From the NCBI GenBank assembly GCA_944388995.1, contig CALXKN010000008.1:17160-81159 (forward strand): a stretch of 64,000 bases of DNA, written 5' to 3'. The notes under the pieces were generated by a model, which was not told the origin of the DNA, made no database searches, and saw nothing but the letters and a program-made list of their open reading frames with translations. Each line of letters starts with the position of its first letter. The stretch's first letter is position 1. This DNA is from an uncultured Spirochaetota bacterium (lineage in GTDB: Bacteria > Spirochaetota > Spirochaetia > JAFGXN01). Position numbers and translations under genes: made by a program. Shown here piece by piece: positions 2,430 through 64,000 of the stretch.

Positions 2430-2744
2430 TTATTGCAATAACAAGAAGTTCCGTTCAAGGCGCTCCGGTTACCGGCGTATATTCTCCGGTAAGGGAATAT
2501 TGTTTTACCCGGAAATGCCATGTTTATATGCCTCTCCGATAAACATGAAGAAACAAAAAAGAAAGAATTCTTTTTCCAATATCTTTAAACAAATAAGGAA
2601 TCATTTCTTCCTTTGTTTTCGGAAAAAAAGACCTTCGGAATACAGTTCTTTCTAATTTTGTTTGCGTCAAAATAAACAGACAGCAAAAGTTCGCCAAAGA
2701 AACCCACCAATAATCATACATTGCGGTTGCATTATATAATAAAA

Positions 2745-23893: not shown

Positions 23894-23980
23894 GGAGAGA
23901 TGTCCGAGTGGTTTAAGGTGCACGCTTGGAAAGCGTGTGTACGGTAACACGTACCGGGGGTTCGAATCCCCCTCTTTCCG
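23894..23980 (+). tRNA. tRNA-Ser (anticodon GGA) with a long variable arm
   Basis: Cloverleaf with acceptor stem GGAGAGA/TCTTTCC (one G-U pair), D-arm GTCCGAGTGG, anticodon loop TTGGAAA, T-arm GGGGGTTCGAATCCCCC. The encoded end is discriminator G, without CCA. Confidence 0.9.
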
Positions 23981-23989
23981 TTTCCCTTG

Positions 23990-24085
23990 GGTAAGACGGC
24001 AGACAAATCGGAGCGGCTCAACCCTGCCAGGTTCGGAAGAAAGCAACAGTCGGCTGTTTCCGGTTGTGCCTGTTTTGTTTTATTC
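23990..24085 (+). ncRNA. ffs: Probable SRP RNA (4.5S, ffs) immediately upstream of dnaX
   Basis: Domain-IV-like core CCAGG-TTC-GGAA-GAA-AGCA (compare E. coli CAGG-UCC-GGAA-GGA-AGCA) with a GGAA tetraloop at 24035-24038. Lies within a long imperfect hairpin ending in a U-rich tract. An ffs-dnaX linkage is common in bacteria. Confidence 0.5.
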
Positions 24086-24108
24086 AAGGGTTTTCTTTGG
24101 GAAAAGCC

Positions 24109-43518: not shown

Positions 43519-43534
43519 TCCGCAGAACGACATC

Positions 43535-43575
43535 AGCACCCCGAAGCCGAATGGCTTCGGGGTGCTTGTTTTATT
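43535..43575 (+). terminator. Rho-independent terminator after gyrA
   Basis: Perfect 14-bp stem (agcaccccgaagcc / ggcttcggggtgct) with a gaat loop, followed by tgttttatt. Confidence 0.75.
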
Positions 43576-43594
43576 ATAAAGACAGTACCGTCAA

Positions 43595-43610
43595 TGTTCC
43601 ACGTGGAACA
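43595..43610. promoter_or_regulatory. parS centromere-like site 1 (TGTTCCACGTGGAACA)
   Basis: Perfect 16-bp palindrome (24-bp with flanks). One mismatch from the B. subtilis parS TGTTCCACGTGAAACA. Lies 1.7 kb from parAB and about 4.5 kb from dnaA. Confidence 0.7.
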
Positions 43611-43645
43611 TTGAGAGCTTCTTCACGGCTTTATCGATTTTTGAA

Positions 43646-43661
43646 TGTTCCACGTGGAACA
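43646..43661. promoter_or_regulatory. parS centromere-like site 2 (TGTTCCACGTGGAACA)
   Basis: Identical 16-bp core to site 1 within a 20-bp perfect palindrome, 51 bp centre-to-centre from site 1. Confidence 0.7.
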
Positions 43662-43696
43662 TTGACATGGATTTTTATCCGTGTTAATTATACGGT

Positions 43697-44992
43697 ATGA
43701 AACGGTGTGTTTTTCTATTTTTAACGGTTTTTACGGCGTTCGGTTCGTTTGCTGAACAAAATGGAATTCGGATTGAAATTGACGGATCCGGGGAAAAGAC
43801 CGTTGCTGTTAAAGAATCTGAAGTTGCGGGAACCTCTGCTTTTGTTTTTTCTTTTAAAAAACAAGTCGGGTTATTTGCCGATAAAGTTACCGTTGAAGAT
43901 GCAGTGAAGGGGTTTAAATTTTATTCCGAGATTCGGGAAAAGGCAAATTTATACCGCAAAGAAGAAGAAAAAATTCGCAGCGATATTCTTGAAAAAGAAA
44001 AACATTTCAAAAAGGAAGCTGATCGCTTATATGATATTTACAACAGAAAACTCGAACCTCTTGTCCGAGCATTGACCGTTTTAGAAAAAAGCCGCTCTTC
44101 CGGCGGAGAAGTCGATGTAAATTCGGTTAAACAAAAGATTATTGAGCTGGAAACGGCACGCGATGAGGAAATTGCCGGCGAGAGAAAAAAATATTTTCCC
44201 GACGGATTGCAAACGAATATTGAAGTGACGATTGAAGAAACGGTTGAGGAAAAAATTATCGAAGAGTTCCGGCTGAACCGTTCTTCGTTTTCGGGGACAC
44301 AGATGTCACTTTCCGATGTAAAGAATTCCGTTTCTCTTCAAAATGCTGTACTTTCTTTTGTTCCGGTGAAAAATCTTAAATTGATTTATGAAGACGAAAA
44401 GACGGAAACATCATCAACAGTTTTAAAAAACGCAGCGCCGGACTTTCAAGCCGTAGGATTGCGTTTAAATTTTCCGAATACAGAAAAAACGTTTCGTTTT
44501 GACTGTGAAGAATTTCTTCGTTTGCTTTCGTCTTTTTTTGATTCACAAAACACGGCGCCGGTCGAAGTTCCGAAAACGGCGGCGGCTCAACAGGTCGGTT
44601 ATGTACTGAAAGCAAGGCGCTGCCTTCCCGAGGAATTTGGTTTAAGAAAAACACGACGCATCAGCAAAGAGTTGTTTGTTCCTGTTTCATTTGAAACCAA
44701 AACAGCGAACATTTCCGTTTCAGCGGCTGAGGTCGGCGGAAAGCGTTTTGTGTTTGTTCTTCCCGAAAAACAGGAAGGGAGTTTGGCTGAACATGTTTGC
44801 CTGATTTTTGAAGAAGCCGAAGTTGTCCGTTTGATACGGCTGATTGAAGAAAAACAAAAGTCTGTCGGTACGGTTTCCGTTGATTGGGATTTTCTTTCGT
44901 TCGATTCTGATTTGAAGACGGAAGTCGAAATAACGGATAACGGAGCGATTTTTCCCGAAGAAAAAATGAAGCAGCTGTTTCGGATAAAGTAA
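43697..44992 (+). CDS. Secreted hypothetical protein
   Basis: Signal peptide MKRCVFLFLTVFTAFGSFA. Charged coiled-coil-like N-terminal half. Confidence 0.55.
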   Translation: MKRCVFLFLTVFTAFGSFAEQNGIRIEIDGSGEKTVAVKESEVAGTSAFVFSFKKQVGLFADKVTVEDAVKGFKFYSEIREKANLYRKEEEKIRSDILEKEKHFKKEADRLYDIYNRKLEPLVRALTVLEKSRSSGGEVDVNSVKQKIIELETARDEEIAGERKKYFPDGLQTNIEVTIEETVEEKIIEEFRLNRSSFSGTQMSLSDVKNSVSLQNAVLSFVPVKNLKLIYEDEKTETSSTVLKNAAPDFQAVGLRLNFPNTEKTFRFDCEEFLRLLSSFFDSQNTAPVEVPKTAAAQQVGYVLKARRCLPEEFGLRKTRRISKELFVPVSFETKTANISVSAAEVGGKRFVFVLPEKQEGSLAEHVCLIFEEAEVVRLIRLIEEKQKSVGTVSVDWDFLSFDSDLKTEVEITDNGAIFPEEKMKQLFRIK

Positions 44993-45005
44993 ATTTACAA
45001 AAAAA

Positions 45006-45030
45006 GCGGGCCTTCGCCCGCCTGTCGTTA
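45006..45030. terminator. Bidirectional terminator
   Basis: gcgggc-cttc-gcccgc hairpin flanked by A-rich and T-rich runs, between convergent genes. Confidence 0.6.
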
Positions 45031-45038
45031 AATCCGAA

Positions 45039-45257
45039 TTAAACCGATTCGACGCCTTCCAGTTCAGGAATATTGTCTTTTAAGTATTTTTCGATACCGT
45101 TTTTCAGAGTCATTTGAGCCATCGGACAGCCGTGACAGCTGCCTTTCAGTTTTACATAAGCGATGTTTCCTTCCATTTTAACAAATTCTACATCGCCGCC
45201 GTCGGCTTGAAGGGAAGGGCGGACATGCTCGATATATTGTTTGACTTGTTCTTCCAT
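45039..45257 (-). CDS. NifU-like Fe-S cluster assembly/delivery protein (Nfu C-terminal domain)
   Basis: GSCHGCPMAQMTLKNGIE matches the Nfu CxxC signature. Confidence 0.85.
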   Translation of the reverse strand: MEEQVKQYIEHVRPSLQADGGDVEFVKMEGNIAYVKLKGSCHGCPMAQMTLKNGIEKYLKDNIPELEGVESV

Positions 45258-45369
45258 AAAAATCTCCTTATTTGCAGTTTAACACTTTTTTTGTGCGGAG
45301 ACAAGAAATTTCGATTTTTTTTTGTTTTTATTGAAGAAAAAATCCTTTTTGACTATTATTATTTATAGT

Positions 45370-46131
45370 ATGAAAACAAAAATTACGGCATTTGTCAATC
45401 AAAAGGGCGGCGTCGGAAAAACGACGACAACAGTAAATCTCGGTGCGTATTTAGCCGACGCGGGGAAAAAAGTTCTTTTAATCGATTTTGATCCACAAGG
45501 AAATCTTTCTTCAAATGTCGGTATTGCCGACGTTGAGAAGGGTATTTACGAATTGCTGGCAGGGCAGGCCGATGCAAATGAATGTGTTTATGAAACGCCT
45601 GTTGACAATCTTTTTGTTTGTCCGACCGATATCAATTTGGCGGGAGGAGCTGTCGAATTGATTTCGGTTGATGATCGGGAATTTGTTTTAAAAGAAGCGA
45701 TGGATGAATGGCGCGGCGTTTACGATTATATTTTTATTGACTGTCCGCCCGCATTGGGAGTACTGACTATTAACGCGTTGACGGCAGCCGATGAGGTGAT
45801 TGTTCCGCTTCAATGTGAATATTTTGCGTTGGAAGGTTTGTCACAGTTATTGGATACGATTGAAATGGTGCGGAATACCACTAACCCGAAATTAACATTT
45901 CCTCGTATACTGTTTACAATGTACGATTCAAGAACCCTTCTTTCCCGCGACGTTGTGGATAATTTGAATCAAAACTATCCGGATCGGCTTTTTAAAACCA
46001 TCATTCCTCGGAATGTCAAGTTGGCAGAAGCGCCGTCTCATGGCGTTCCGATTAATTTATACGACAGTTTATGTCTTGGAGCAAAGAGTTACGAAAATTT
46101 GGCAAAGGAGTATATGAACGATGGCAAATGA
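45370..46131 (+). CDS. parA: Chromosome partitioning ATPase ParA/Soj
   Basis: Deviant Walker A KGGVGKTTT. The start was chosen at MKTKI. Confidence 0.9.
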   Translation: MKTKITAFVNQKGGVGKTTTTVNLGAYLADAGKKVLLIDFDPQGNLSSNVGIADVEKGIYELLAGQADANECVYETPVDNLFVCPTDINLAGGAVELISVDDREFVLKEAMDEWRGVYDYIFIDCPPALGVLTINALTAADEVIVPLQCEYFALEGLSQLLDTIEMVRNTTNPKLTFPRILFTMYDSRTLLSRDVVDNLNQNYPDRLFKTIIPRNVKLAEAPSHGVPINLYDSLCLGAKSYENLAKEYMNDGK

Positions 46132-47029
46132 AAATCGTCCTGCAAGAATGAAACGATCGGGATTAGGAAAAGGGATCGAAAATCTGAAACCGAAGGCAGC
46201 GGCTCCTTCCGTAAAAAAGTGGGAAGAAGAGGCGGCCCAAAACGGCGGTATTCGCGAAATTGCGCTCGATGATATTTTTGCCTATACCGATCAGCCGAGA
46301 AAATATTTTGATGAAGAGTCTTTAAACGAACTGGCCGATTCGATTCGGCAAGTCGGCGTTCTGCAGCCGATTTTGGTTATCAGTCGCGAGTCGCGGTATA
46401 TGATTGTTTCCGGAGAACGGCGTTACCGCGCCGCGGTCAAAGCCGGCTTGAAAACCATTCCGGCAGTGGAAATGTCGTTGACTGACGAAAAAGCGGATGA
46501 AATTGCGGTTATTGAAAATATTCAGCGTGAAGATTTAACTCCACTGGAAGAAGCGCGCGCTTATCAGGCGTTAATGCGCCGTTACGGTTATACGCAGGAG
46601 CAGGTTGCCGAAAAAGTCGGAAAAAAGCGTTCGACAATCACCAATGCCGTCCGTTTACTGAAATTACCTGAAGACATTTTAACCGGATTGGAAGAAAATA
46701 AAATTACAGCGGGACATGCACGGAGTTTGGCCGGGTTAAAAAAAGAATCGGAAATGCGGAAGTTTTATCAGATGATTATCTCAAAAGGTTTAAGCGTCCG
46801 CGATATTGAAAAACTTCTGGCAAAAGACGAAAAAAAGGCGGAACCGACAGCGGCCGCCGGAAAACCGTCCAAATCGGAGGATATTCTCGCCGTTGAATCG
46901 CAGTTGATGGAACGGCTGGGAACTCACGTTCTTATCAACGGAACGGAAAAACGGGGAAAAATTGTCATTGATTATTATTCGCTCGATGATTTAAATCGAT
47001 TGATCGAACTGTTGGGAGGCGGTTTTTAA
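46121..47029 (+). CDS. parB: Chromosome partitioning protein ParB/Spo0J
   Basis: ParB box GERRYRAA plus an HTH. Confidence 0.9.
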   Translation: MANENRPARMKRSGLGKGIENLKPKAAAPSVKKWEEEAAQNGGIREIALDDIFAYTDQPRKYFDEESLNELADSIRQVGVLQPILVISRESRYMIVSGERRYRAAVKAGLKTIPAVEMSLTDEKADEIAVIENIQREDLTPLEEARAYQALMRRYGYTQEQVAEKVGKKRSTITNAVRLLKLPEDILTGLEENKITAGHARSLAGLKKESEMRKFYQMIISKGLSVRDIEKLLAKDEKKAEPTAAAGKPSKSEDILAVESQLMERLGTHVLINGTEKRGKIVIDYYSLDDLNRLIELLGGGF

Positions 47030-53070: not shown

Positions 53071-53403
53071 ATAAGGAATATTGTGCGGAAAGCGGATCAT
53101 AAAGAGAGAAAACACTCATTATAAATGAGATAAAAATTCAATTTAAACAAGGACAAAAAAGAAATCCGTTCGGGCATTCCGAATACTTTAATGAGTACAT
53201 TAATCATTTAAAATGAGTAAACCGGCCGTCTTCCGGGTTGCGCCGGAAAAATGTCTGTTTGTCCTTGGCAGAAATCACTGCCGTCGGAAAGAATCGCCGA
53301 CAGGTTAAACTGTCGACGGTCTGATTCGGTCGGCATGGTTTTACAGCGGCTTTTCAAACCGATCGAGGCGGCGCCATTCTGCCTGAGCACTCATAAATGA
53401 TTC

Positions 53404-55218
53404 CTATTCTTTTTTTTCGAAAACGTATCTGATGTCAAAACTGTCGAGAGCATCAAATGTCACATTTTCCCATTTATTGCGAACGGCCAAAAACGCATAC
53501 GGCCGCACCAGATAAACCAGCGGCACCTCTTCCCAAATGATTGACTGGTAACGGTCCCACAACGCTTTCGCCTTTTCGGCATCCGCGGTGTAGGAGGCTT
53601 CCGTATACAGACGGTCGATTTCGGCTTCCCATTCGGTTGCCGGCGTTTTCTGATTTGGATACCACATATGGAGGTTGCCGCCGCTCGGCCACACGTTGAC
53701 GCCCTGGCTCGGAAACAGGTTGCTGCCGGAAAGCGCAATCGACAACGACTGCCAATCGAACGAGTAGAGGAGGGAGTCTACCATTTTCGCAAAATCGACC
53801 GTGCGGATTTCCATCGCAATTCCCTGTTTTTTCAAATCATCGGCATAAATGTTGGCAATGTCCGACAGCTGCGGATTGTCAGCGGAAATCCAAAAGTCAA
53901 ACGCGACGGCGTTGCCCTCTTTATCGCGTAAAACGCCGGCAGAGTCCTTCTCCATTCCGATAGACGTCAACAGCGCGGCCGCTTTTTCCGGATTGTAAAA
54001 ATAGTTGAAAACAAGACTCTCCTCAAACACCGGCGAGGCTTCATGAAAAAAGTGGGTGACCGGTTTCGCTAAACCACGGTAAACATTGCGGATGATTTTT
54101 TCCCGATCCAGAAGGCAGCTCATTGCCTGCCGGAACTCTTTCTGTGAAAACCAATTATAATACTTGCGAGGCAGCGCACTGCGGTTAGGGTTTTGATTCC
54201 ACGTGATAAAAGCCGCTGTCGGAGCCGGACCGCCGTTAATCACCTCGTAACCGCCTTTTTCCTGTTCGGACAGCACGGAATCCAAATCGGCAGGCATCAC
54301 CGACAGCGTTTCCAGTTCGCCGTTTTTGAAAAGCAGCAGCTGCGTTGAAGGATTGGAAACGAACGAAAAACGCACCGTATCAAGGTAGGGCAGCCGCTGA
54401 CCGACGCTGTCTTCCAAAAAATAGTGCGGGTTGCGCCGCAGCTCCAAAACCAGTCCGGGCGTGTAACGGCTGATGTAAAACGGTCCGGCAGTCGGAACGG
54501 TGCTCGGATCGGTATTAATGGTAATAAAATCAATGACACGTTGAGAGCCGCCTTCCTTCTTTGCCGCCTCATAAAGAAACCGCGGCCCGATTTGCAGATT
54601 CGCCGCCAACAAAGGATCGGCGACAATTCGCGGAAAAGTCAGCCGAAACGACGAATCGGTCAGCTTCTCCGCGGTAATTTCGCCGCGGCTCCCGTCCGGC
54701 ATCGGCACAAACATCCCCGAATATTCAGCCATATTCAAAGCCGGATCTTTGATGATTTCCTCAATCCAAAAAACAGCGTCGTCGGCATTGAATGCGATTG
54801 TTTCGCCTGTCTTCGGCACAAACCAACACAAACCCGACTTAAATGTGAAATCAACCTCGGTGACCTGACGCTGCTCATCAACACGGACTTCAAAATCGGC
54901 AATGTGCCCCGACCATTTTTTTTCATAAACATCATATTCCAACAAATACGGACAAAGGTAACTCATCACAGCGCTCGTTGGTAAATCATTGATACGCGTC
55001 AAATTGAATGTCGACGGGTCCGACTCCATCGCCTCGTTCCAAACCCCACCGTAACGTCCGATTTTCCGCTCTCCGCCGCCCGGCCGAACCGTCATCTGCG
55101 ACAGAAAGCCGTTTTGGGCTTCCGCCCGCAAAGCCGCCGCCTCCTGCGTCGACACTTCCTTTTTCGGACCGCATGAAACTGCAGCCGCCGCCAAAACCGC
55201 CAAAAAAAAGCCCTTCAT
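53404..55218 (-). CDS. ABC transporter substrate-binding lipoprotein, family 5 (OppA/DppA-like peptide or nickel binding)
   Basis: Lipobox AAVSCG. Size of about 600 aa and SBP_bac_5-like sequence. Confidence 0.7.
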   Translation of the reverse strand: MKGFFLAVLAAAAVSCGPKKEVSTQEAAALRAEAQNGFLSQMTVRPGGGERKIGRYGGVWNEAMESDPSTFNLTRINDLPTSAVMSYLCPYLLEYDVYEKKWSGHIADFEVRVDEQRQVTEVDFTFKSGLCWFVPKTGETIAFNADDAVFWIEEIIKDPALNMAEYSGMFVPMPDGSRGEITAEKLTDSSFRLTFPRIVADPLLAANLQIGPRFLYEAAKKEGGSQRVIDFITINTDPSTVPTAGPFYISRYTPGLVLELRRNPHYFLEDSVGQRLPYLDTVRFSFVSNPSTQLLLFKNGELETLSVMPADLDSVLSEQEKGGYEVINGGPAPTAAFITWNQNPNRSALPRKYYNWFSQKEFRQAMSCLLDREKIIRNVYRGLAKPVTHFFHEASPVFEESLVFNYFYNPEKAAALLTSIGMEKDSAGVLRDKEGNAVAFDFWISADNPQLSDIANIYADDLKKQGIAMEIRTVDFAKMVDSLLYSFDWQSLSIALSGSNLFPSQGVNVWPSGGNLHMWYPNQKTPATEWEAEIDRLYTEASYTADAEKAKALWDRYQSIIWEEVPLVYLVRPYAFLAVRNKWENVTFDALDSFDIRYVFEKKE

Positions 55219-55224
55219 GCCGCC

Positions 55225-55253
55225 ATAGTAAAAGAAAGCCGCCGTCCTGTCAA
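55225..55253 (-). promoter_or_regulatory. Promoter for the oppA-like gene (TTGACA-17nt-TACTAT), with the -10 box 6 nt from the ATG (leaderless candidate)
   Basis: Minus-strand sequence reads ttgacaggacggcggctttcttttactatggcggcATG, immediately abutting repeat copy A. Confidence 0.45.
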
Positions 55254-55254
55254 C

Positions 55255-55421
55255 CTTTTCGTTTTTTGGGCGCGCGCCCCTGCGGGGCGCCGGGCTTTCC
55301 GCTGCAATTCGCAGCCTCCCTGCGCCTTCACCGCGGCAAAGCTGCCGCTTTGCCCTGCGCCTTCTCTCCGTCGGCAGCTCATTTCCGCTTCAATCCCTCG
55401 CGCCTTCGGCAAGGTGCTGCG
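55255..55421. repeat. GC-rich 166/167-bp structured repeat, copy A
   Basis: About 99% identical to 56426..56591 (a single 2-bp indel). Contains a GGGCGCGCGCCC palindrome and hairpins gctgc-aattc-gcagc and ggcaaagc-tgcc-gctttgcc. About 68% GC in a genome of about 50% GC. Confidence 0.9.
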
Positions 55422-55616
55422 GAAATCGGCATTTTATTGTTTTAGTGTAAAAATGGGAACTTCCGAAAACAGTCAACCGTTTTTCGGAAAAATAACTGCC
55501 CTAAACGTATTTTTGTGTTATAATAACTCCAATAAAAATTTCGTATGGCAAACACAGCAAAAGCAAAACCCGAAAAAAACGCCGATTAAAACCGGAGCGG
55601 AAGATTCGGGAGAAAC

Positions 55617-55922
55617 TTGGAGCGATCGGGTATGAGCTGTAATCTTCCTGAAAGCGTGGTTTTCGATATTGAACGATTCGCAAAGAAAAACAAGATTAAA
55701 AAGGTCGTTCTGTTTGGCTCCCGCGCGAGGGGCAATCATTCGGAACGAAGCGACATTGATTTGGCGGTCAGCGGTGGAAACGCGGCGGATTTTTATTACG
55801 ACGTCAATGAAGAAGCGCGGACTCTTTTAATTTTTGATGTGGTCAATCTGGACGGACCGGTCAGCGGCGAACTGCGCGCCGAAATAGAAAAGGACGGAGT
55901 TTTACTCTATGAAGAAATTTGA
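55617..55922 (+). CDS. Minimal nucleotidyltransferase (MNT), MntA-like antitoxin of a type VII TA pair
   Basis: GS-x9-DxD nucleotidyltransferase motif (LFGSRARGNHSERSDIDLAV). Overlaps the downstream HEPN gene by 14 nt. Confidence 0.8.
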   Translation: MERSGMSCNLPESVVFDIERFAKKNKIKKVVLFGSRARGNHSERSDIDLAVSGGNAADFYYDVNEEARTLLIFDVVNLDGPVSGELRAEIEKDGVLLYEEI

Positions 55923-56304
55923 CAATTTTTGCAAAGCGCTTTCGAATTTGCGGGAAGGATTGCAGCTTGAAGAACCGTATTCTGTCGTCGAACGGACGGG
56001 CATCATCGGGCTGTTTGAAATTTGCTTTGAGCAGGCATGGAAGCTGATGAAAGCGGTTTTGGAAGAGCACGGCAGGACAATCGACCGCGTCGGTTCCCCG
56101 AAAGTTGTCATTCAGCTTGCATATCAGAGCGGGATGATTGACGACAGCGAAAAATGGCTTTCCCTGCTCAGAGATCGAAATATCCTTGCTCACACCTACA
56201 GCGACGAAGATTCGCTTGCCGTGATTCGAACGTTAAAGACGGACTACGAGCCCTTGTTCGCCACCCTCAAAGAAGAGATTGAAACGCGCCGGCTTTCGGC
56301 GTAA
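55909..56304 (+). CDS. HEPN-domain protein, HepT-like toxin
   Basis: HEPN Rx4-6H motif RNILAH in the C-terminal helix. Size and pairing are typical of HepT/MntA pairs. Confidence 0.75.
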   Translation: MKKFDNFCKALSNLREGLQLEEPYSVVERTGIIGLFEICFEQAWKLMKAVLEEHGRTIDRVGSPKVVIQLAYQSGMIDDSEKWLSLLRDRNILAHTYSDEDSLAVIRTLKTDYEPLFATLKEEIETRRLSA

Positions 56305-56425
56305 AGCGGAGGCGCGAAACAACTGAGTCCGGTATGAAAGTAGAAGAAATGGGAGCGAAAACTCTTTCAATCGCCACTGATTCTGCCAGCATCTTTACAT
56401 TTGGCTCCGCCCCCCCTCGCTGAAT

Positions 56426-56591
56426 CTTTTCGTTTTTTGGGCGCGCGCCCCTGCGGGGCGCCGGGCTTTCCGCTGCAATTCGCAGCCTCCCGCGCCTTCA
56501 CCGCGGCAAAGCTGCCGCTTTGCCCTGCGCCTTCTCTCCGTCGGCAGCTCATTTCCGCTTCAATCCCTCGCGCCTTCGGCAAGGTGCTGCG
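56426..56591. repeat. GC-rich 166-bp structured repeat, copy B
   Basis: Direct repeat of 55255..55421, located between the convergent HEPN gene and the 961-aa gene. Confidence 0.9.
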
Positions 56592-56655
56592 AAAGAGGCG
56601 TCTGAAAACTATAAATATGAGAACAATCTCATTTAAACCTCATCCATTTTTATCT

Positions 56656-59541
56656 TCAGCAGAAATGCGCCATATCGCGCGGATAATACTTGCAGTCGTG
56701 CAGTTCCGTGTCGTCAAGCCCCAGCGCCTTTACCAGGGCAGCAGACGCTATGCACCAGTACCCGCGGTACTGGTTCTTTTTCAAGTCAAATTTTGTTATA
56801 AGCCCATCAGTCTTCGTGTGAATCCACTGTCTTTTAAGATACCGTTTTAACCGCTCAACAGCCGCCGCTTTATTCTCTTTTGAAAGCAGTACCACCTCAT
56901 ATACCGCATTGGAATATTTCGGACAGCAGAGCTTTTCCGTGCGTATCTGCCAGGATGAGTCCAGCGTCTGCATAAGGAAATCCAGATAAAAATCCCGCTG
57001 TTCCGATTTTTGTAACAATTTTCGATAGTCATCCAGAAATTCAGTCCTGTTAAAAAGCATAATCAAGTACAGAACAGTTTCCATATCTTCATAATTATCA
57101 TTGCCGTCCTGTGCGTCTATCAAATGACGCAAAATCAGGTCTACTTCGGGAAGCAGCTCATGCATATCTAGCCCTAAGGAATATCCTGTATAAAATTTGT
57201 AAAATGCATAAGTATATATTTGATATTTAAACGCTCTTATGTCCGATTCTGCCTGATGTTCATCAGTCTCAATATTATGATGATGATACGTTTGCAGTAT
57301 TTCTTTCAGCTTTTGGGAATCTTTCTTGAATCTTTCGTCAAAATATTCCTGGGGTTTGACTTTATCCCTCATCATTCTTACCCGGGGCGGAAGTTTTTCC
57401 CGCTCCTCCTCCGTAAGAAATTGCGACAGTTCAACTAAAAAGGGCTCTATAAACTCCGACATGAGTTTCGCTTTATTCCCGGCTGAGTGATCATAAGGTA
57501 TTTCAATTGCCGATGTCCGCCGTTTCTCATCCTTCCACAAGCGTCCTATTTTAATAAATGAACCGCCTTTCTCAAATATGTACAACGATATAATCAGTGT
57601 GCAGTCTTCATACTCACATTCTATATAATCTTGCTCCCCCAAGCAGTAATCTCTGTAGGTAAGATTCCTCAAAGTGGTTATTATCCAGGGTATCCACTCT
57701 TTTTTGATGACAACACTATCCCATGACTGCCATGACCCGGTACCGAAACGGCTGCCGGTTCTGGTGTTGATTCGTAGTTCGCCTTTGGGACTCCAGGGCG
57801 TGGGAAGTTTTTTCCGTTCTTCTTCAGGAAGAAATTGTGACAAGGCCACTAAGAAGGGTTCTATAAATTCCGACATGATTTTCAAGTCGTTGTCCGATTC
57901 TTCAAAATTAAATTCGAAACGGGTATAACGCCACTTTGATGTCAGGGTATAACTCTGCTCATTTTTTGCATGCCAAGGAAAATAAGGTATTTCAAGTGCC
58001 GGCGATATCTTCTTTTCATCCTTCCACATGGGAAATATTTTTATATAGGAATACCCATCCCCTATAGGACAGATACTTAATGTTAATTGGCACGTTCCCC
58101 ATTTATTTATGATGCTTTCAACTCCTGTTTGATAATTATCAACACTAAGATTTCTCAATGTGCTTATTATCCAGGGTATCCGGTTTTTTTGTATAACAAT
58201 ACTTTTCTGCTGCCCGCCGCCGAATGTACCGGTTCTTTTTCCGTTAATCCGTAATTCATCGTTATCTAATTCCTCGAAGCTGTATTCAAAATCGGCATTC
58301 AGAGTTTTTTTGCTTTGATATTTTGTTATCTTCTCTATTTTGGCTACTATCGATTCGTCGTCCGACTTATCGGTTTCGCCTGCATACCAATCTTTGCCTT
58401 CGAGCCATACCCCGAACCAGAAAGGAAGATCCCCCCAAGGTCTTTGACAGAGTTCTTTCTTTTCGTTGACACTCCAGGGGGGCGACAGTTTACCCCTTTC
58501 TTCTTCCGTGAGAAACTGCGACAATGCAACCAGAAACGGCTCTATAAATTCCGACATTAATTTTGTTTCTTTCCGGGATACATAGGGTATTTCAATATTC
58601 CATGAACTCTTATTTTCATTTTTCCAGACAGGATAAATTTTGATATAGGAATAATCAAAGGGTACTACATTTATAATAAAACTTAAATTACAGTAACCGT
58701 ATTCATATACGAGAGTTTGCGGGGTGTTATAATCGTCGATAGTGGCATTTCTTAGTGTGGTAATGATCAAAGGTATCCACGCTTTTTTTATGATAATACT
58801 TTCCCATTGTCCCCTGCCGAATGAATCTGTTCGCTTTGCATTGATTTCCAACTCGTCATCATTTAATTCTTCATTGTCAGCTTTTTCCTCAAAATAAAAT
58901 TCGAAATGAACATTCCCGCCCTTACTGATCAGGTATTCTTTTTCTGCCAGTCCGTATTGTGTTATACCGGTCATTGCTTTGAAAAAATTGAGGGAACCGC
59001 TTTCCTTATCGGCAAAAATGATGTTCTGTTTTTTGTTTTCCCTCCAGGGAGGCGGAAGTTGTGTTCTTTCTTCTTCGGTAAGGAATTGTGCCAATTCAAC
59101 CAAAACAGGTTCGATAAATTCCGCCATTAACCTGCTTTTATCCCAGGGTAGATATGGTATTTCAATAAACGGTGTCGTTTTTTCCTTCGGTTCCTTCCAT
59201 ATGGGCATTATTTGAAGGGTCGCATAATCTTTGGCAGATGGTAAAAACTCCAGATTGACTTGACATTCTTCATATTCGTGAACGATATGTCTGTTCCAAA
59301 TCCCTTCCGGAAAGTTGATGTCGTAATCCTCAAAAGGAAGGGTTCTCAGTGTGGTGATAATCCGGGAAATCCACGCTTTTTTTATGACGATACAGTAATA
59401 CAAAGGCATACGTTCCGCTTCATCCAACAATGGAAAGGTTATTTTTTCGAAAATCCGTATTTCGTCGTTGTCCGATTCCTCAAAATGAAATTCAAAGGTA
59501 TCGGATATTTCGGCATCTCCCCTTCTGCCTGTAATGAACAT
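56656..59541 (-). CDS. Large modular protein with four rearranged ~170-200-aa tandem repeats plus a C-terminal domain paralogous to ORF 59781..60401
   Basis: Repeats fall at roughly aa 16-212, 213-417, 418-541 and 542-~740, with shared motifs FEFxFEESDNDELRI..KRTxxFGxGQWxSIxIKKxWIPxIITTLRN..DY, ..YIKIxPxWKxExK..EIPY.. and KLMSEFIEPFLVxLSQFLTEEERxKLPPPW. The C-terminal ~200 aa is about 70% identical to the stand-alone ORF upstream. Confidence 0.7.
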   Translation of the reverse strand: MFITGRRGDAEISDTFEFHFEESDNDEIRIFEKITFPLLDEAERMPLYYCIVIKKAWISRIITTLRTLPFEDYDINFPEGIWNRHIVHEYEECQVNLEFLPSAKDYATLQIMPIWKEPKEKTTPFIEIPYLPWDKSRLMAEFIEPVLVELAQFLTEEERTQLPPPWRENKKQNIIFADKESGSLNFFKAMTGITQYGLAEKEYLISKGGNVHFEFYFEEKADNEELNDDELEINAKRTDSFGRGQWESIIIKKAWIPLIITTLRNATIDDYNTPQTLVYEYGYCNLSFIINVVPFDYSYIKIYPVWKNENKSSWNIEIPYVSRKETKLMSEFIEPFLVALSQFLTEEERGKLSPPWSVNEKKELCQRPWGDLPFWFGVWLEGKDWYAGETDKSDDESIVAKIEKITKYQSKKTLNADFEYSFEELDNDELRINGKRTGTFGGGQQKSIVIQKNRIPWIISTLRNLSVDNYQTGVESIINKWGTCQLTLSICPIGDGYSYIKIFPMWKDEKKISPALEIPYFPWHAKNEQSYTLTSKWRYTRFEFNFEESDNDLKIMSEFIEPFLVALSQFLPEEERKKLPTPWSPKGELRINTRTGSRFGTGSWQSWDSVVIKKEWIPWIITTLRNLTYRDYCLGEQDYIECEYEDCTLIISLYIFEKGGSFIKIGRLWKDEKRRTSAIEIPYDHSAGNKAKLMSEFIEPFLVELSQFLTEEEREKLPPRVRMMRDKVKPQEYFDERFKKDSQKLKEILQTYHHHNIETDEHQAESDIRAFKYQIYTYAFYKFYTGYSLGLDMHELLPEVDLILRHLIDAQDGNDNYEDMETVLYLIMLFNRTEFLDDYRKLLQKSEQRDFYLDFLMQTLDSSWQIRTEKLCCPKYSNAVYEVVLLSKENKAAAVERLKRYLKRQWIHTKTDGLITKFDLKKNQYRGYWCIASAALVKALGLDDTELHDCKYYPRDMAHFC

Positions 59542-59780
59542 TGCATCTACCAGTTTAAGAAAAGCTTTTGTATCAGCGGATTGGGCAGATTCTTCATGTT
59601 GATCGTCTTCTTTATTATATTTTATTCCGACTCCTAAGGAACGCAGCCGTCATATCGAAGGGGTGCAACGGTATGACGGCCAACACTCCGCTTTCACGCG
59701 GTGGTCTTATGCTGTTCATGTCGATACCGGACCGCTTCCGACACAACCGAATGAAGTTTTCCGATTTTCCGAATCAATTT

Positions 59781-60401
59781 CTAACAGAAATGGGTCATAT
59801 CGTAGGGATAGTATTTACAGTCTTTCAGTTCCGTATCGTCAAGTTTGAGGGCTTTTACCAAAGCGGCGGCGGCGATGCACCAATACCCCCGGTACCACCC
59901 TATTTTCAGATCCCGGTTGGTTATAACACCTTCGGTTAATGACATAAACCACTGCCTTTTAAGATACCTCTTTAACCGCTGGACGGCTTCCGCCTTGTTT
60001 TCTTTTGACAGCATTACCACCTCGTATACCGAATTGGTCTCTTTGGGGCAACGAAGTTTTTCCGTACTTATCTGCCATGTGGAGTCTACTATCTGTACAA
60101 GATAATCCAGGTAAAAATCCCGCATTTTCGATTTTTGTAATAACTCCTTATATTCATCCAGAAATTCTGTCCGGTTAAAAAGAATGATTAAGTATATAAT
60201 CATTTCCATATCATCATAACCTCTGTCCCTTTCTCTCGTTGTATCAATCAAATTTCTTATGATAAGGTCTACTTCGGGAAGCAGCTCATTCATACCAAGC
60301 CCCAGGGAATAGCCTGCATAAAATTTACAAGCTGCTTCCATATATATGTGATATTTAAACGACCATACATTATATTTTTCCGGATGGCTTATTCTCTTCA
60401 T
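59781..60401 (-). CDS. Stand-alone paralogue of the C-terminal domain of the 961-aa protein (unknown function)
   Basis: FKYHIYMEAACKFYAGYSLGLGMNELLPEVDLIIRNLID...YRGYWCIAAAALVKALKLDDTELKDCKYYPYDMTHFC aligns with FKYQIYTYAFYKFYTGYSLGLDMHELLPEVDLILRHLID...CKYYPRDMAHFC. Confidence 0.65.
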   Translation of the reverse strand: MKRISHPEKYNVWSFKYHIYMEAACKFYAGYSLGLGMNELLPEVDLIIRNLIDTTRERDRGYDDMEMIIYLIILFNRTEFLDEYKELLQKSKMRDFYLDYLVQIVDSTWQISTEKLRCPKETNSVYEVVMLSKENKAEAVQRLKRYLKRQWFMSLTEGVITNRDLKIGWYRGYWCIAAAALVKALKLDDTELKDCKYYPYDMTHFC

Positions 60402-60642
60402 ATTTACTCATCCGTTCAGCAAGATCAGACGCATCCTTATTATATCTTTCCCTAAAATATTCTTCTGTTTTTATGGTGTCTCTCATCTGTTATTCCTTGT
60501 GTATTTTGTAAATTTTTGGTTTATTCTCGTTATACATAACATTGCCATTTTCATCAAGTTGGTAATATGTTACTTTTCCTCCCTTCGGAACGCCTGCGGC
60601 GTGGCTACAATCCTTTGTGCGAGAAGATTTTTATCAATGGTG

Positions 60643-60700
60643 TCCGTACACACCCATTGATGTTGTCAAAGAACTCCTTCTGTACGGAGATAGGGGGAGG
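60643..60700. repeat. 58-bp perfect direct repeat, copy 1 (copy 2 at 63943..64000)
   Basis: tccgtacacacccattgatgttgtcaaagaactccttctgtacggagatagggggagg is identical at both sites. Contains an internal 8-bp inverted repeat (tccgtaca/tgtacgga). Confidence 0.9.
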
Positions 60701-60701
60701 G

Positions 60702-60929
60702 TTATTCAAAAGTTATTACCATATGCGAACCTGCCGTTTTTTCGGTTACTTTCTGTATAATCTCTTTTTTGTCATCTTCAGTTAATGGCTCGTTTTCTGG
60801 AACAAGCCAATTTTTCATTGAACTTTTATAACAGACAAAACCGCCTACTATCATTTCGCCTGCGATTCTCGCAGTTCTGCCATCGAGTTCTACATCTATG
60901 TATGTGTTTGTTCCGGTTATTTTTGTCAT
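60702..60929 (-). CDS. Small hypothetical protein, possibly an immunity protein; a truncated copy of its 5' end lies at 62318..62350
   Basis: 75-aa ORF 8 nt downstream of a DUF600-like gene. Its first ~10 codons recur after the second DUF600-like gene. Confidence 0.45.
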   Translation of the reverse strand: MTKITGTNTYIDVELDGRTARIAGEMIVGGFVCYKSSMKNWLVPENEPLTEDDKKEIIQKVTEKTAGSHMVITFE

Positions 60930-60938
60930 ATATTAATC

Positions 60939-61271
60939 CTATGCATTATCCCATTCGTCTTGAAGAGCCTGATCCCATTCAAAGGTCATATCAAAGTGAC
61001 CGTTCTTTTCAAGGGTGTAAATAGCTTTGTTCCATTGTGCAAAATGTAACTCTTTTGCACTATTATGAAATTTTATTAAATCAATTTTTGTTTCTCGATT
61101 AAGTGCTAAGTTTAAAGCATTTTTCCATTCTCCATTAATCTGATATTTTGCATTCGTACCAATATATTTATCACTACATTCAATATTCAGTTCAATTTTA
61201 TCCCAAGAGGAATCAATACTATCATTCAATTGCGAACCAATATTTTTATATATATCTTCAATATTTTTCAT
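60939..61271 (-). CDS. DUF600/EsaG(YezG)-like immunity protein, paralogue 1
   Basis: N-terminus IYKNIGSQLNDSIDSSWDKIEL resembles EsaG IYNEIANEISSMIPVEWEKVY. Its C-terminal block NGHFDMTFEWDQ is shared with paralogue 2. Sits immediately downstream of the nuclease toxin fragment. Confidence 0.55.
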   Translation of the reverse strand: MKNIEDIYKNIGSQLNDSIDSSWDKIELNIECSDKYIGTNAKYQINGEWKNALNLALNRETKIDLIKFHNSAKELHFAQWNKAIYTLEKNGHFDMTFEWDQALQDEWDNA

Positions 61272-61283
61272 AAATACTCCTAT

Positions 61284-61648
61284 TAATTTAAGAAGAACAA
61301 ATTTTCTGTTTTTTCTATTTTTCCATCCGATGTTTTTATAATGTATGTTACATCAAAATCTGTCGGTCTTAGATTATCAGCATAGTTTATTTTTATATCA
61401 ACTTCAACCTTTTTTCCCTCTGAAAGTGCATCGTTCCATTTTTTTTCCATGGTTTTCCATTCACCATTATTTAGTGTGGCGGTTTGTGGAACATAATTTA
61501 TTTGTTCTCCAGGACCATTGAAAATTCTTGCAATAATATGTCCGCCCTGGTCATCACCTTTAATACCATCTTTTATATCAACTGATTTTCCTTGTTGATA
61601 AACATTTCTGTCTTTTGTTTCAAGTTTTAATTCTCCGCTTACTTTGTT
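61284..61648 (-). pseudogene. Orphan C-terminal fragment of a His-Me-finger (Serratia-type / Endonuclease_NS) non-specific nuclease toxin domain; no start codon
   Basis: A stop-to-stop frame translates to ..KDGIKGDDQGGHIIARIFNGPGEQINYVPQTATLNNGEWKTMEKKWNDALSEGKKVEVDIKINY.., with the His-Me-finger catalytic His in GGH (canonical DRGH) and the metal-ligating Asn in N-Y-VPQ (Serratia nuclease N-I-TPQ..LNQGAW). In-frame tag and taa stops lie upstream and there is no ATG before the motif. Confidence 0.55.
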
Positions 61649-61731
61649 TTACAACTATTTTCTTTTACTTGCAATTGTTCCAAAACGATTAAGTGCAGCA
61701 ACAATATCTTCATAATCAGCATCTATTTCAT

Positions 61732-62262
61732 CTAACTGTCCCAGATTTCCTTAAATTTTAAACCTTTGATACTGTTTTTCTTAACAATATCTATAAACTC
61801 ATCTGTTACAAAATAATCTCGAATAATTAATTGATTTTGTAGTTTAACTTGAAAAAGAGGTGGATAATTGTTTTCCTTAAAATAATATTGCTCAACACCT
61901 AAAATATCATTCTCAAAATACTTATATTTAGTTTTTTTTCGATCTAAGCAGTCCAAAACAGTTAAATTATTTAATAGTACAAAATCGTCATTAAGCGGAA
62001 CAAATCTTATATTTATTTGAGAAATGTCAGAAAGTACTGCCATAAATTTTTTATTTATGAAGAATCCTCTACAATCATAACATTCACAAATATCCCCTGC
62101 AGGATTATTAGAATCTCTATCGTATTCTAATTGAAAATCAGAAGGAATGCTTATTTCTATACCTTTATTAAACTGACGTAAAATTTTTCTATCAGTTTCT
62201 TCGTTTTTTATATAGCATCCTTTGTAATTATCAATATCTGTTTCTAAAATGTATATTTTCAT
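61732..62262 (-). CDS. Hypothetical protein (putative immunity protein) with a G8 tract in its RBS
   Basis: 176-aa ORF in the immunity-gene array. The run ggggggggatatATG sits immediately upstream of its start. Confidence 0.5.
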   Translation of the reverse strand: MKIYILETDIDNYKGCYIKNEETDRKILRQFNKGIEISIPSDFQLEYDRDSNNPAGDICECYDCRGFFINKKFMAVLSDISQINIRFVPLNDDFVLLNNLTVLDCLDRKKTKYKYFENDILGVEQYYFKENNYPPLFQVKLQNQLIIRDYFVTDEFIDIVKKNSIKGLKFKEIWDS

Positions 62263-62266
62263 ATAT

Positions 62267-62274
62267 CCCCCCCC
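62267..62274 (-). repeat. Homopolymeric G8 tract (C8 on the plus strand) 4 nt upstream of the start codon of ORF 61732..62262
   Basis: Plus strand reads atatatccccccccTAATTG; the ATG of the minus-strand gene is at 62260-62262. Confidence 0.9.
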
Positions 62275-62362
62275 TAATTGTGAATTTTTAAGAAACCACT
62301 CAATAATTCCTTTCGGATTGTTTGTATGTGTTTGTTCCGGTTATTTTTGTCATATATTAATC

Positions 62363-62686
62363 CTATGCATTATCCCATTCGTCTTGGAGAGTTTGATCCC
62401 ATTCAAATGTCATATCAAAATGACCATTCCTTTCAAGAGAGTAAACAGCTTTGTTCCATTTATGCTCAGGCGACATAGATTCTTGAAGTTCAAAAACGCT
62501 ATCCATTAAAGTATTTACAGTTAATAAAGGAAACTTTAATTCTTTTTTTTCAAACGATGATAAAGTATATTCTGCCTGAAATGAACACATTTTATTTAGA
62601 CTTGATTCTATTTTTACAGTCACTTTTTCCCATTTACCGGAAATATTATCTTGAACCGCCTTGCCTAATTCTTTATATAAATCCAT
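62363..62686 (-). CDS. DUF600/EsaG(YezG)-like immunity protein, paralogue 2
   Basis: GKWEKVTVKIE ... WNKAVYSLERNGHFDMTFEWDQTLQDEWDNA. Its C-terminal 40 aa is nearly identical to 60939..61271. Confidence 0.55.
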   Translation of the reverse strand: MDLYKELGKAVQDNISGKWEKVTVKIESSLNKMCSFQAEYTLSSFEKKELKFPLLTVNTLMDSVFELQESMSPEHKWNKAVYSLERNGHFDMTFEWDQTLQDEWDNA

Positions 62687-62732
62687 AGCATCTCCATTAA
62701 TTGTTGAATATTTTTTTGAATAGTTGGCTCAT

Positions 62733-63842
62733 TTATTTCTCTTTATTTAAAATAAACAGATACTCAGAGACGTGTATATTACGGTTATTCAAATTTCTGC
62801 TTCCCCGGAATGTATTATAAGTCATTTCAACGGTTTTCAGTTTTCCGTAGTGTTCCAGCATTGTTTTCATTTGCTCAAAAGTAATAAATCCTTCAGAATT
62901 ATAAGAGATAATGACAAACTTTGAATCAATTTTATCTATGATTTTTTCCATGGATTTTAAGGCTGAATAAGGTTTGTTGAATTCCGAGCGGTTCCAATCC
63001 TGAGTTATCCCTGAAACTTTACTGATTTCAGCATCCAGCCTGTTCTTTATGATAAGATTCAGCATAAAATAATTTGAACCATAGGGATGCTGGTTATACG
63101 GGGGATCCAGATAAGTAATATCTATTTTTTTTAATTCCCCGGCAAGTTCCACAGCATCTTTTTTATAGATTTTAACCTTTGAATTGAAATTGCTTAAAAC
63201 CGGCTCTTTCAGTTCTATTTTTCCAAAAATGCGGGTTAAAGCGTTTTTCCCGGCAGCGCCGAAACATCCGATTCCGGTATTTTTGTCCTTGTAAAACCCT
63301 TTGAAAACCCCGCTTGTATTGACATGAACCGAAGCCTCCGTTACGAGCGGCGCTAAAAAAAATTTTTTCATGTCTTCTTCCTGCACCACTTTATCAATCA
63401 GACTGCGGTAAGTGTCGATTAACAGAGCGTTCTCATGGGTATAAAAAACCCTTTCTCCTCTTTGAATATTTCCGTCATCCTGAGGGGCATAATTTTTTGT
63501 GATAATTCTCGGTTCTTTTTTGCTGCGGCACATTTCTTCTATTATTGATTTATATTCCCGCCATTTTTCATGCGGAAAATCTTTTTTGTCAGTCAGATAG
63601 CATTCATTGATGAGGCGGGAATATTCTTCCAGATCATTGGCAATTAAAACACTGCTGTATTTTTTCAGCATCCGGGCAACAATTCCCGAACCGGAGAAAA
63701 TATCCGCACAAACAAGTTTTTCTTTTCCCAATAAACCGGCAATTTTTTTGACTTCTTCTTCTATATTCCTGATAAGCTGCCGTTTGTTCCTGATATAAGT
63801 AATGATCTGTGCAGTAAGATATTCTTTATTTTCTTCTTTCAT
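62733..63842 (-). CDS. DNA N6-adenine methyltransferase (DPPY motif), either orphan or part of an R-M system beyond the window
   Basis: Motif I DIFSGSG and motif IV TYLDPPYNQHPYGSNYF. No restriction endonuclease gene is visible within the window. Confidence 0.7.
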   Translation of the reverse strand: MKEENKEYLTAQIITYIRNKRQLIRNIEEEVKKIAGLLGKEKLVCADIFSGSGIVARMLKKYSSVLIANDLEEYSRLINECYLTDKKDFPHEKWREYKSIIEEMCRSKKEPRIITKNYAPQDDGNIQRGERVFYTHENALLIDTYRSLIDKVVQEEDMKKFFLAPLVTEASVHVNTSGVFKGFYKDKNTGIGCFGAAGKNALTRIFGKIELKEPVLSNFNSKVKIYKKDAVELAGELKKIDITYLDPPYNQHPYGSNYFMLNLIIKNRLDAEISKVSGITQDWNRSEFNKPYSALKSMEKIIDKIDSKFVIISYNSEGFITFEQMKTMLEHYGKLKTVEMTYNTFRGSRNLNNRNIHVSEYLFILNKEK

Positions 63843-63942
63843 GGCTGTAAAGATTTATATTGTTCCAAATTTCCGGTTTATTCTATGCTTTTTGACAGAC
63901 CTTTATACTCAGTATCCCTCTCCGCAAAAATCAACCCGGATT

Positions 63943-64000
63943 TCCGTACACACCCATTGATGTTGTCAAAGAACTCCTTCTGTACGGAGATAGGGGGAGG
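63943..64000. repeat. 58-bp perfect direct repeat, copy 2 (cut by the window end)
   Basis: Identical to 60643..60700, about 100 bp upstream of the methyltransferase start. Confidence 0.9.

Follow-up and report, generated by a model that had tools for sequence, protein, structure and literature searches.

The 64,000-nucleotide stretch analysed here (the window) comes from an uncultured Spirochaetota bacterium (GenBank assembly GCA_944388995.1, contig CALXKN010000008.1, positions 17,160 to 81,159 of the forward strand). In it, two near-identical direct repeats, copies A and B of a structured intergenic element, bracket a predicted toxin-antitoxin gene pair of the MNT-HEPN type. The element is related to the Flavo-1 RNA motif, and we think it probable that the arrangement results from recombination between dispersed copies of it. 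The locus is composed as follows (window coordinates):

53404..55218, minus: oppA-like lipoprotein, a family 5 solute-binding protein (Pfam SBP_bac_5, 162 bits); the conserved left anchor
55225..55253, minus: promoter-like site of the oppA-like gene, TTGACA-17-TACTAT (10/12 matches)
55252-55424, minus, 173 nt: repeat copy A, a Flavo-1-like structured element (185 bits with model R1)
55425..55591, plus: AT-rich "P" region with an extended -10, TGTTATAAT, at 55516-55524
55592..55642, plus: remnant of an hsdM 3' end, KPERKIREKLGAIGYEL*, overlapping the MNT start
55632..55922, plus: MNT, 96 aa, HI0073-like, antitoxin-type (Pfam Polbeta 59.4 bits, NTP_transf_2 40 bits)
55909..56304, plus: HEPN, 131 aa, HI0074 family, toxin-type (NTase_sub_bind 101.8 bits, TIGR01987 92.1 bits)
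56305..56358, plus: 3' flank that moves with the toxin-antitoxin core; 56358 is the right homology edge with the copy in a restriction-modification (R-M) operon and with other strain types
56363..56410, minus: lipoprotein-gene remnant, codons about 19-34 (93.75% identity to positions 1296-1343 of comparison locus L028)
56423-56594, minus, 172 nt: repeat copy B, the same element as copy A (183 bits with model R1)
56656..59541, minus: PoNi-like immunity protein, 961 aa (Pfam PoNi_C and PoNi_N); the right anchor in the window strain

Two near-identical repeats had been proposed at this place from the letters alone, and they are indeed there, slightly longer than first drawn. The copies differ by a single 1-nt indel (T 55326 is absent from B) and by one mismatch near each end, so that within the limits originally proposed identity is about 99.4% and the indel is the only difference. 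The missing-T state of copy B is also found in an element copy of L028. The original prediction was right about the contrast in composition and off in the figures: GC content is 65.3% in copy A and 64.5% in copy B, not 68%, against 47.0% in the DNA between them, not about 50% (44.3% in the full window). The palindrome of 12 bp that it reported, GGGCGCGCGCCC, lies in each copy (55268-55279 and 56439-56450), the extended -10 lies in the P region, and copy A does sit beside the -35 box of the oppA-like gene, whose promoter overlaps the edge of the copy by 2 bp (55252-55253). A third copy is absent from the 64-kb window, whether looked for by repeat search, by box search (up to 3 mismatches) or by covariance-model search.

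An empty site and its variants

A clue to how this arrangement arose comes from a reference metagenome-assembled genome (MAG) of the same species, BRZ_M__bin37. Its corresponding locus (L019) is about 97% identical at the nucleotide level and syntenic, window 53391-55424 aligning with L019 2263-230 and window 56423-56822 with 402-1. There, a single element copy, flanked on the left as copy B is and on the right as copy A is, stands between the end of the PoNi-like gene (L019 1-165) and the promoter of the oppA-like gene (96.8% nucleotide identity), and the site has neither MNT nor HEPN. What separates the two genomes here is one 173-bp copy and 998 bp of unique DNA, no more. A single repeat copy at the empty site is the outcome that the original prediction had looked to as support for recombination at a repeated element.

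Other strains reveal that the copies exchange sequence. Strains that share 99.9% identity elsewhere vary in whether copy A has the indel and in whether the base at the boundary of copy B reads G or A, each state matching the other copy. Variant states are thus swapped between copies A and B, which is a signature of gene conversion. The copy B of L056 (5514-5700) is a hybrid: from within box 2 onwards it has the sequence of another, shorter Flavo-1-like element type, R2. We also observed R2 (...GGGCTTTCCGCTGCAATCTCGTGCCTTCGCCTGCGTCTGCCGCTTTCTCAAATCC...) 3' of the toxin-antitoxin pair in some strains, and it follows the pair directly in L045 (995-1047), L051 and L052.

In L054 and L055 (about 97% identity), copy B is followed by a second P region that extends to window position 55611 or 55551, a duplication of 300-360 bp (L054 5515-5873 matches window 55252-55611). 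The second P copy of L054 carries the first 22 nt of the hsdM stub, which shows the toxin-antitoxin unit to be its source; a 59-nt deletion between two GTATGG motifs sets L055 apart from L054. Behind the second element and P region lies an open reading frame (ORF) of 309 aa (L054 5894-6823, L055 5835-6629), which has no Pfam match. In L028 (966-1194) a duplicate of the element stands before a lipoprotein gene unrelated to oppA and has brought along the promoter and first three codons of oppA (ATGAAGGGC), a case of promoter capture by segmental duplication. That lipoprotein gene, intact in L028 (1242-1961) downstream of this element copy, is the one of which a stub remains at window 56363-56410. 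Finally, in L049 (oppA 96.7% identical) a fragment of a type I restriction R subunit (1691-3218) lies directly upstream of oppA in place of element and island; its breakpoint falls about 12 nt past the 3' end of the element, and the site carries no element. In oppA orthologues that are further removed (79-81% identity), purL lies 70 nt upstream, and element, toxin-antitoxin pair and PoNi island are all absent. Because the whole island is missing from them, they do not polarise gain versus loss.

A structured repeat related to Flavo-1

The Flavo-1 RNA motif was described as Rfam RF01705 (Weinberg et al. 2010, PMC2864571). It ranks with the most abundant small RNA (sRNA) families of Rfam, and its function is unassigned (PMC9029176; PMC9723704). 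At gathering thresholds, Rfam detects in the whole window a tRNA and the signal recognition particle (SRP) RNA and no Flavo-1 match. In E-value mode both copies match Flavo-1 on the minus strand at 21.6 bits (E = 0.34), where the gathering threshold is 42 bits, so that by score neither copy belongs to the family. This low score is due to an insertion of 72 nt where the family centre measures about 26 nt. In fact, the conserved halves of Flavo-1, GGGAUUGAAGCGGAAAU ... AUUGCAGCGGAAAGCCC, are present letter for letter on the minus strand. The halves of the purine-rich box and internal loop, GAUUGAAGCGGAAAU and AUUGCAGCGGAAAGC, lie on opposite arms of one helix and match the consensus exactly (model positions 1-76), and core pairs 24-26/128-130, 33-34/120-121 and 38-40/114-116 are kept in all 13 spirochaete copies aligned.

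To place the element we scanned one genome per species for two exact boxes 50-80 nt apart. The 30 loci recovered include 13 in BRZ_M__bin37 (a lower bound, given the exact-box pattern and a genome seen in 8-kb pieces) and 4 in other Spirochaetales/Spirochaetaceae MAGs, the remainder being from Bacteroidota. A multi-copy unit of the kind that had been called REP/MITE-like (after repetitive extragenic palindromic sequences and miniature inverted-repeat transposable elements) is therefore what these repeats represent, with at least 13 copies in one genome and relatives in other Spirochaetales and in Bacteroidota. Scored as Flavo-1, the two-box loci of Flavobacteria reach 46-76 bits, a Spirochaetales locus (L008) 34 bits and the window copies 21.6 bits. 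Conversely, model R1, which was built from spirochaete copies, gives the BRZ_M__bin37 copies 152-187 bits and recovers the Flavobacteria and L008 loci at 22-62 bits. Given these graded scores, the window element forms the far end of a continuous series. Judged by sequence and predicted fold, the element is a sub-threshold, expanded spirochaete relative of Flavo-1 that shares the defining core of Flavo-1; this spirochaete branch is itself a family of dispersed, structured intergenic elements of about 145-170 nt. Weak R1 matches (22-27 bits) also occur near strong copies, at L022 4601-4724 (minus), L015 3764-3947 (minus) and L014 282-435 (plus), the first of them inverted and separated by 85 bp from a full copy; they are perhaps family members that have decayed or diverged. 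Our literature search on REP elements in Flavobacterium or spirochaetes, and on HEPN/MNT pairs flanked by direct repeats, returned nothing specific.

The 13 spirochaete copies align well, and their predicted fold is a three-way junction of helices P1, P2 and P3, with these parts on the minus strand:

P1, minus-strand reading: 5' strand GGCGCG and 3' strand CGCGCC; the closing helix, with an A-tract after the 3' strand
Box 1, 55395-55381, minus (copy A): GATTGAAGCGGAAAT
Apical hairpin, minus, inside the 72-nt insert between the boxes: GGGCAAAGC-GGCA-GCTTTGCC, invariant in the lineage
Box 2, from 55308, minus (copy A): ATTGCAGCGGAAAGC
P3 hairpin, minus, between box 2 and the 3' strand of P1: GCGCCCC-GCA-GGGGCGC, variable across copies

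P2 consists of the Flavo-1 core, a further helix and the invariant apical hairpin. Across the alignment 99.1% of cells are paired and 6 pairs have changed on both sides. The pairing controls agree: none of 500 shuffles reaches the observed value, and sliding the partners lowers pairing to 31-48%. P1 covaries across phyla as GGCGCG/CGCGCC, GGCGCA/TGCGCC, GCGTT/AACGC and GCGGCA/TGCCGC; the automatic search for P1 partners was noisy in about one third of the loci, and clear cases alone were used. G-U pairs are confined to the minus-strand reading, and the predicted fold energy is -82.8 kcal/mol (z = -2.4). A check against Rfam and of the fold, as the original prediction had advised, thus ends in a minus-strand Flavo-1 relative below threshold with compensatory changes. 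We also considered a coding reading, given the ORFs of 65-71 aa that run through the repeats. It was ruled out by the 1-nt indel, the length variation of P3 and the compensatory pair changes, and the idea that the repeats are parts of a decayed gene falls with the same indels and base-pair changes. Members of the family are always intergenic, in mixed orientation: among 32 cases, 10 are convergent, 7 divergent, 5 opposite to both neighbours and 4 co-directional.

The toxin-antitoxin pair and its origin

MNT precedes HEPN with a 14-nt overlap. The original prediction had named the pair MntA/HepT. MNT and HEPN genes are indeed there, and it is the label that does not hold: MNT scores 44.8 bits against NCBIfam MntA (NF047752), below its cutoff of 60, and HEPN scores merely 25.5 bits with Pfam HepT-like versus 101.8 bits with NTase_sub_bind, so that the MntA equivalog with HepT/DUF86 toxin that defines type VII MntA/HepT is lacking. 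The pair has instead what characterises HI0073/HI0074: HEPN reaches 92.1 bits against TIGR01987 (cutoff 55.8), a small MNT with GS-x(n)-D-x-D lies upstream, and HEPN has the Rx4-6H motif. Both motifs are intact in the translations (GSRARG...SDIDLAV in MNT; RNILAH, an Rx4H, in HEPN), and relatives of HEPN in the PDB include 1jog (HI0074) and 8xdj (a HEPN toxin). The pair is an ordinary MNT-HEPN pair of the HI0073/HI0074 type, a predicted toxin-antitoxin.

Where did it come from? The nearest non-identical homologues, at about 70% identity, belong to Treponema and Oscillospiraceae, and the Treponema homologue (69% identity) lies between hsdM and hsdS, without the element. In L053 the toxin-antitoxin core (window 55590-56358) is found at 96.6% identity between the 3' end of hsdM and hsdS. 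The ORF upstream of it matches Pfam N6_Mtase, and the hsdM-MNT junction encodes ELEREIREKLGAIGYEL. The window's KPERKIREKLGAIGYEL corresponds to the last 17 codons of HsdM when aligned to the hsdM-MNT junctions of L053 and L041. Because these 3' codons of hsdM are retained, the pair is a fragment of a type I R-M operon organised as in L053 and L041 (hsdM-MNT-HEPN-x-hsdS). The comparison shows such an operon to be the origin of the core. No element lies near the core in L053, nor is there one with the core in L057. The "cassette" is thus a mosaic of P promoter region, hsdM stub, MNT-HEPN and lipoprotein-gene stub, and not a discrete mobile unit. A scan of JGI metagenomes with a 36-mer of the cassette promoter gave 0 matches.

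The surrounding region

Several features of the surrounding region deserve mention in their own right. The -10 of the oppA-like gene ends 6 nt before its ATG (55218), with no Shine-Dalgarno sequence, which suggests that the mRNA may be leaderless. To the right, 56656-64000 is an island of orphan immunity genes. It begins with the PoNi-like 961-aa protein, which has four internal repeats, and includes a second PoNi_C gene (59781-60401), Imm74, an Imm11-like gene (61732-62262), an Endonuclease_NS_2 fragment and a Dam-like methyltransferase (62733-63842). The island has repeats of its own, one exact over 58 nt (60643-60700 and 63943-64000) and one of 138 nt at 93% identity (60899-61036 and 62323-62460). 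Further to the left, a tRNA directly adjoins the small SRP RNA (23894-24087), and gyrA and parA/parB are present (41068-47029). This gene content suggests that the chromosomal replication origin is not far away. Within 41-64 kb of the window there is no gene for a recombinase, an integrase or a transposase, and a RAYT (the transposase associated with REP elements) was found neither there nor near the fetched element copies.

Probable recombination on a dispersed repeat

How, then, did the two copies come to flank this segment? We consider it likely that the polymorphism reflects general homologous recombination, with a dispersed structured repeat as its substrate and a hypervariable island as its setting. 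The two repeats would be copies of one resident family member located upstream of the oppA-like promoter, and homologous recombination between copies of the element would link the mosaic segment to the chromosome. The repeats would thus act as portable homology, with no dedicated enzyme, and RecA-type recombination would be the source of the polymorphism. To gain the segment, a circle or donor segment bearing one copy would integrate; to lose it, the two direct copies would recombine and the segment would pop out, as in the relative. Gain and loss are the same mechanism, and the empty site of BRZ_M__bin37 may well reflect deletion of the segment by recombination between the two copies, and not an ancestral condition. 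Once acquired, the toxin-antitoxin pair may persist through the cost of its loss. The element itself would be a selfish or neutral structured repeat of the REP type, with at most generic effects on RNA ends, and not a regulator dedicated to the genes beside it. Events differ in where the shared sequence ends, and no recombinase is encoded in 41-64 kb, which fits general homologous recombination (in some cases microhomology-mediated) and not a site-specific system. Cassettes of about 97% identity with the same left junction occur in several lineages, so the cassette is not very recent. Of the original proposal that a cassette was inserted by recombination at a structured repeat, it is therefore the recombination that stands; the discrete mobile unit does not, given the mosaic and the repeat-free core of L053.

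Some observations sit less easily with recombination of this general kind. The presence of the same left junction at about 97% identity in several lineages means that the empty site could equally be a secondary deletion. The relative's genome was seen in 8-kb pieces, and an associated transposase may lie elsewhere in it. The right-hand side continues in three different ways, each starting at position 56358 or a few bases from it, a near-common start that pure homologous recombination does not neatly explain. The restriction of G-U pairs to the minus strand hints that one strand matters, which is needless for a passive DNA repeat, and the element may have a function as RNA.

This last idea can be made explicit: the copies could be a small RNA, a terminator or insulator, or an attenuator, copy B ending the convergent toxin-antitoxin and PoNi transcripts and copy A acting on oppA, with the duplication kept for that purpose. 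The strong conservation of structure, the compensatory changes, the minus-strand G-U pairs and the fold energy given above all speak for it, as do the weak minus-strand promoter-like sites just upstream of the copies (56637-56608 and 55459-55431), the listing of Flavo-1 as an sRNA candidate in Rfam and the position between convergent genes, the commonest in the family (10 of 32). Flavo-1 matches have also been reported among Leptospira transcripts (bioRxiv 10.1101/2023.03.29.534852). In Flavobacterium psychrophilum, however, Flavo-1 matches lie sense or antisense to transcripts and many are untranscribed (PMC9723704). Moreover, no U-tract follows either hairpin on either strand, and a terminator scan was negative within both repeats; the one terminator-like site nearby (55411-55435, plus) overlaps the border of copy A and extends into the cassette. 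Copy A has divergent promoters on its two sides and would be transcribed from neither neighbour, the related strain manages with a single copy, and neighbour orientation is mixed across the family. We therefore regard such an RNA function as unlikely to explain the duplication, and the shared terminator or attenuator RNA offered in the original prediction is not borne out. Could the repeats instead be sites for a dedicated enzyme, like attC or, via RAYT or another transposase, like REPIN or MITE, with the toxin-antitoxin segment as a captured cassette? The folded imperfect palindrome with two conserved boxes and a variable centre does look superficially like attC or REPIN, elements stand where modules join in several strains (as copies A and B, and as R2 in L045, L051 and L052), and L054 presents two successive units of element, P region and gene. 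Toxin-antitoxin pairs are also typical cargo of chromosomal integrons. Yet 41-64 kb holds no integrase or transposase, and the boxes are direct, not inverted, without an R''/R' pair (RYYYAAC...GTTRRRY), relatives having 5'-GCGTT...AACGC-3', of opposite polarity. The duplicated stretch overruns the family core by 12-17 nt on each side here, reaches a length of 360 nt in L054 and in L028 runs on into the promoter of oppA, so its end points are not fixed. The toxin-antitoxin core also exists without any element (L053, L057), and two scans of viral contigs with the two-box pattern gave 0 matches. Movement directed by the element is, on this balance, rather improbable.

There is finally the question of whether the duplication is real or a chimera of assembly or binning, made from a collapsed or expanded repeat. 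The source is metagenomic, and short-read Logan contigs (1047-1064 nt) break exactly inside the repeats. But at least 8 metagenome assemblies made independently contain the two-copy arrangement, at 99.9% identity or more, and it is therefore not an assembly artefact. Both junctions were assembled independently in those samples, with different assemblers and in contigs of up to 212 kb. Diverged versions (96-97% identity) retain the same left junction, and the copies carry copy-specific variants. An artefact is thus extremely improbable.

Comparison with known systems

Compared with Flavo-1, the window element has the same layout of helix and internal loop around a centre that is a variable hairpin, and like Flavo-1 it is intergenic, multi-copy, without a single neighbour orientation and without an assigned function. 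It departs from it in the 72-nt insert (about 26 nt in the family) with its lineage-invariant apical hairpin, in the addition of closing helix P1 and 3' hairpin P3, which make the three-way junction, and in its host, a gut spirochaete (Treponema-like) and not one of the Flavobacteria.

With REP/REPIN, ERIC and Correia-type MITEs it shares a high GC content, a folded structure, an intergenic position and many copies per genome, and copies of both serve as substrates of homologous recombination, leading to indel polymorphism and gene conversion. REP/REPIN elements, however, are palindromes of 20-40 nt in hundreds of copies and inverted doublets, whereas this element measures about 145-173 nt (some 150 nt for a typical copy) and is branched, tens of copies were seen, no RAYT was seen and its boxes are direct repeats on opposite arms of a helix. 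The combination of terminal inverted repeat and target duplication known from MITEs was not seen. P1 (GGCGCG/CGCGCC) does form an inverted terminal pair, and its flanks CGAA...CCCGAA/CCCAAA are conserved as part of the element. A clean empty site for the element itself was not found among the loci compared.

Integron attC sites are likewise folded imperfect palindromes with conserved ends and variable centres that lie between genes and accompany toxin-antitoxin cargo, and the two successive element-plus-gene units of L054 recall an integron array. Here, however, there is no intI nearby, no R''/R' core sites and no constancy of junctions; the cargo has its own promoter and stubs of foreign genes, unlike integron cassettes, and arrays do not exceed 2 units. 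Identity with attC is ruled out by the polarity of the core (5'-GGCGCG...CGCGCC-3' here), the lack of intI in 41-64 kb and the unfixed junctions.

As for the cargo, HI0073/HI0074 pairs are relatives of type VII MntA/HepT and are often found in type I R-M operons. The window pair resembles them in gene order, in the GS...D.D motif of the nucleotidyltransferase, in the Rx4H of HEPN and in passing TIGR01987. It differs in being detached from the R-M operon, with 17 hsdM codons left, and in its foreign AT-rich promoter region.

Implications

A bolder possibility is that Flavo-1-type elements are recognition sites of a recombination or mobilisation system common to Bacteroidota and Spirochaetota, in which the symmetric box pair would be bound by a dimeric protein and promoter-plus-gene modules would be moved into and out of hypervariable islands of defence and immunity genes. 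We hold this to be a long shot. If it were true, one of the most abundant orphan "sRNA" motifs of Rfam would gain a function, and the modules moved would include the toxin-antitoxin pair and the ORF of L054.

The gain and loss of toxin-antitoxin and defence genes through repeats is expected biology, and no paradigm is changed: recombination through repeats is clear at this locus, but ordinary. The novelty is confined to the expanded form that an orphan motif takes in spirochaetes and to evidence that this motif acts as a genomic repeat that recombines. The locus also documents how a toxin-antitoxin pair leaves a type I R-M operon and comes to stand behind a new promoter. It represents a spirochaete branch of Flavo-1 with a larger fold, a dispersed repeat found where the parts of a hypervariable island join, with recombination and conversion among its copies. 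This behaviour supports Flavo-1 as a REP-like genomic element over a classical regulatory RNA, and the strain pairs with occupied, empty and hybrid sites provide concrete material for testing that reading.

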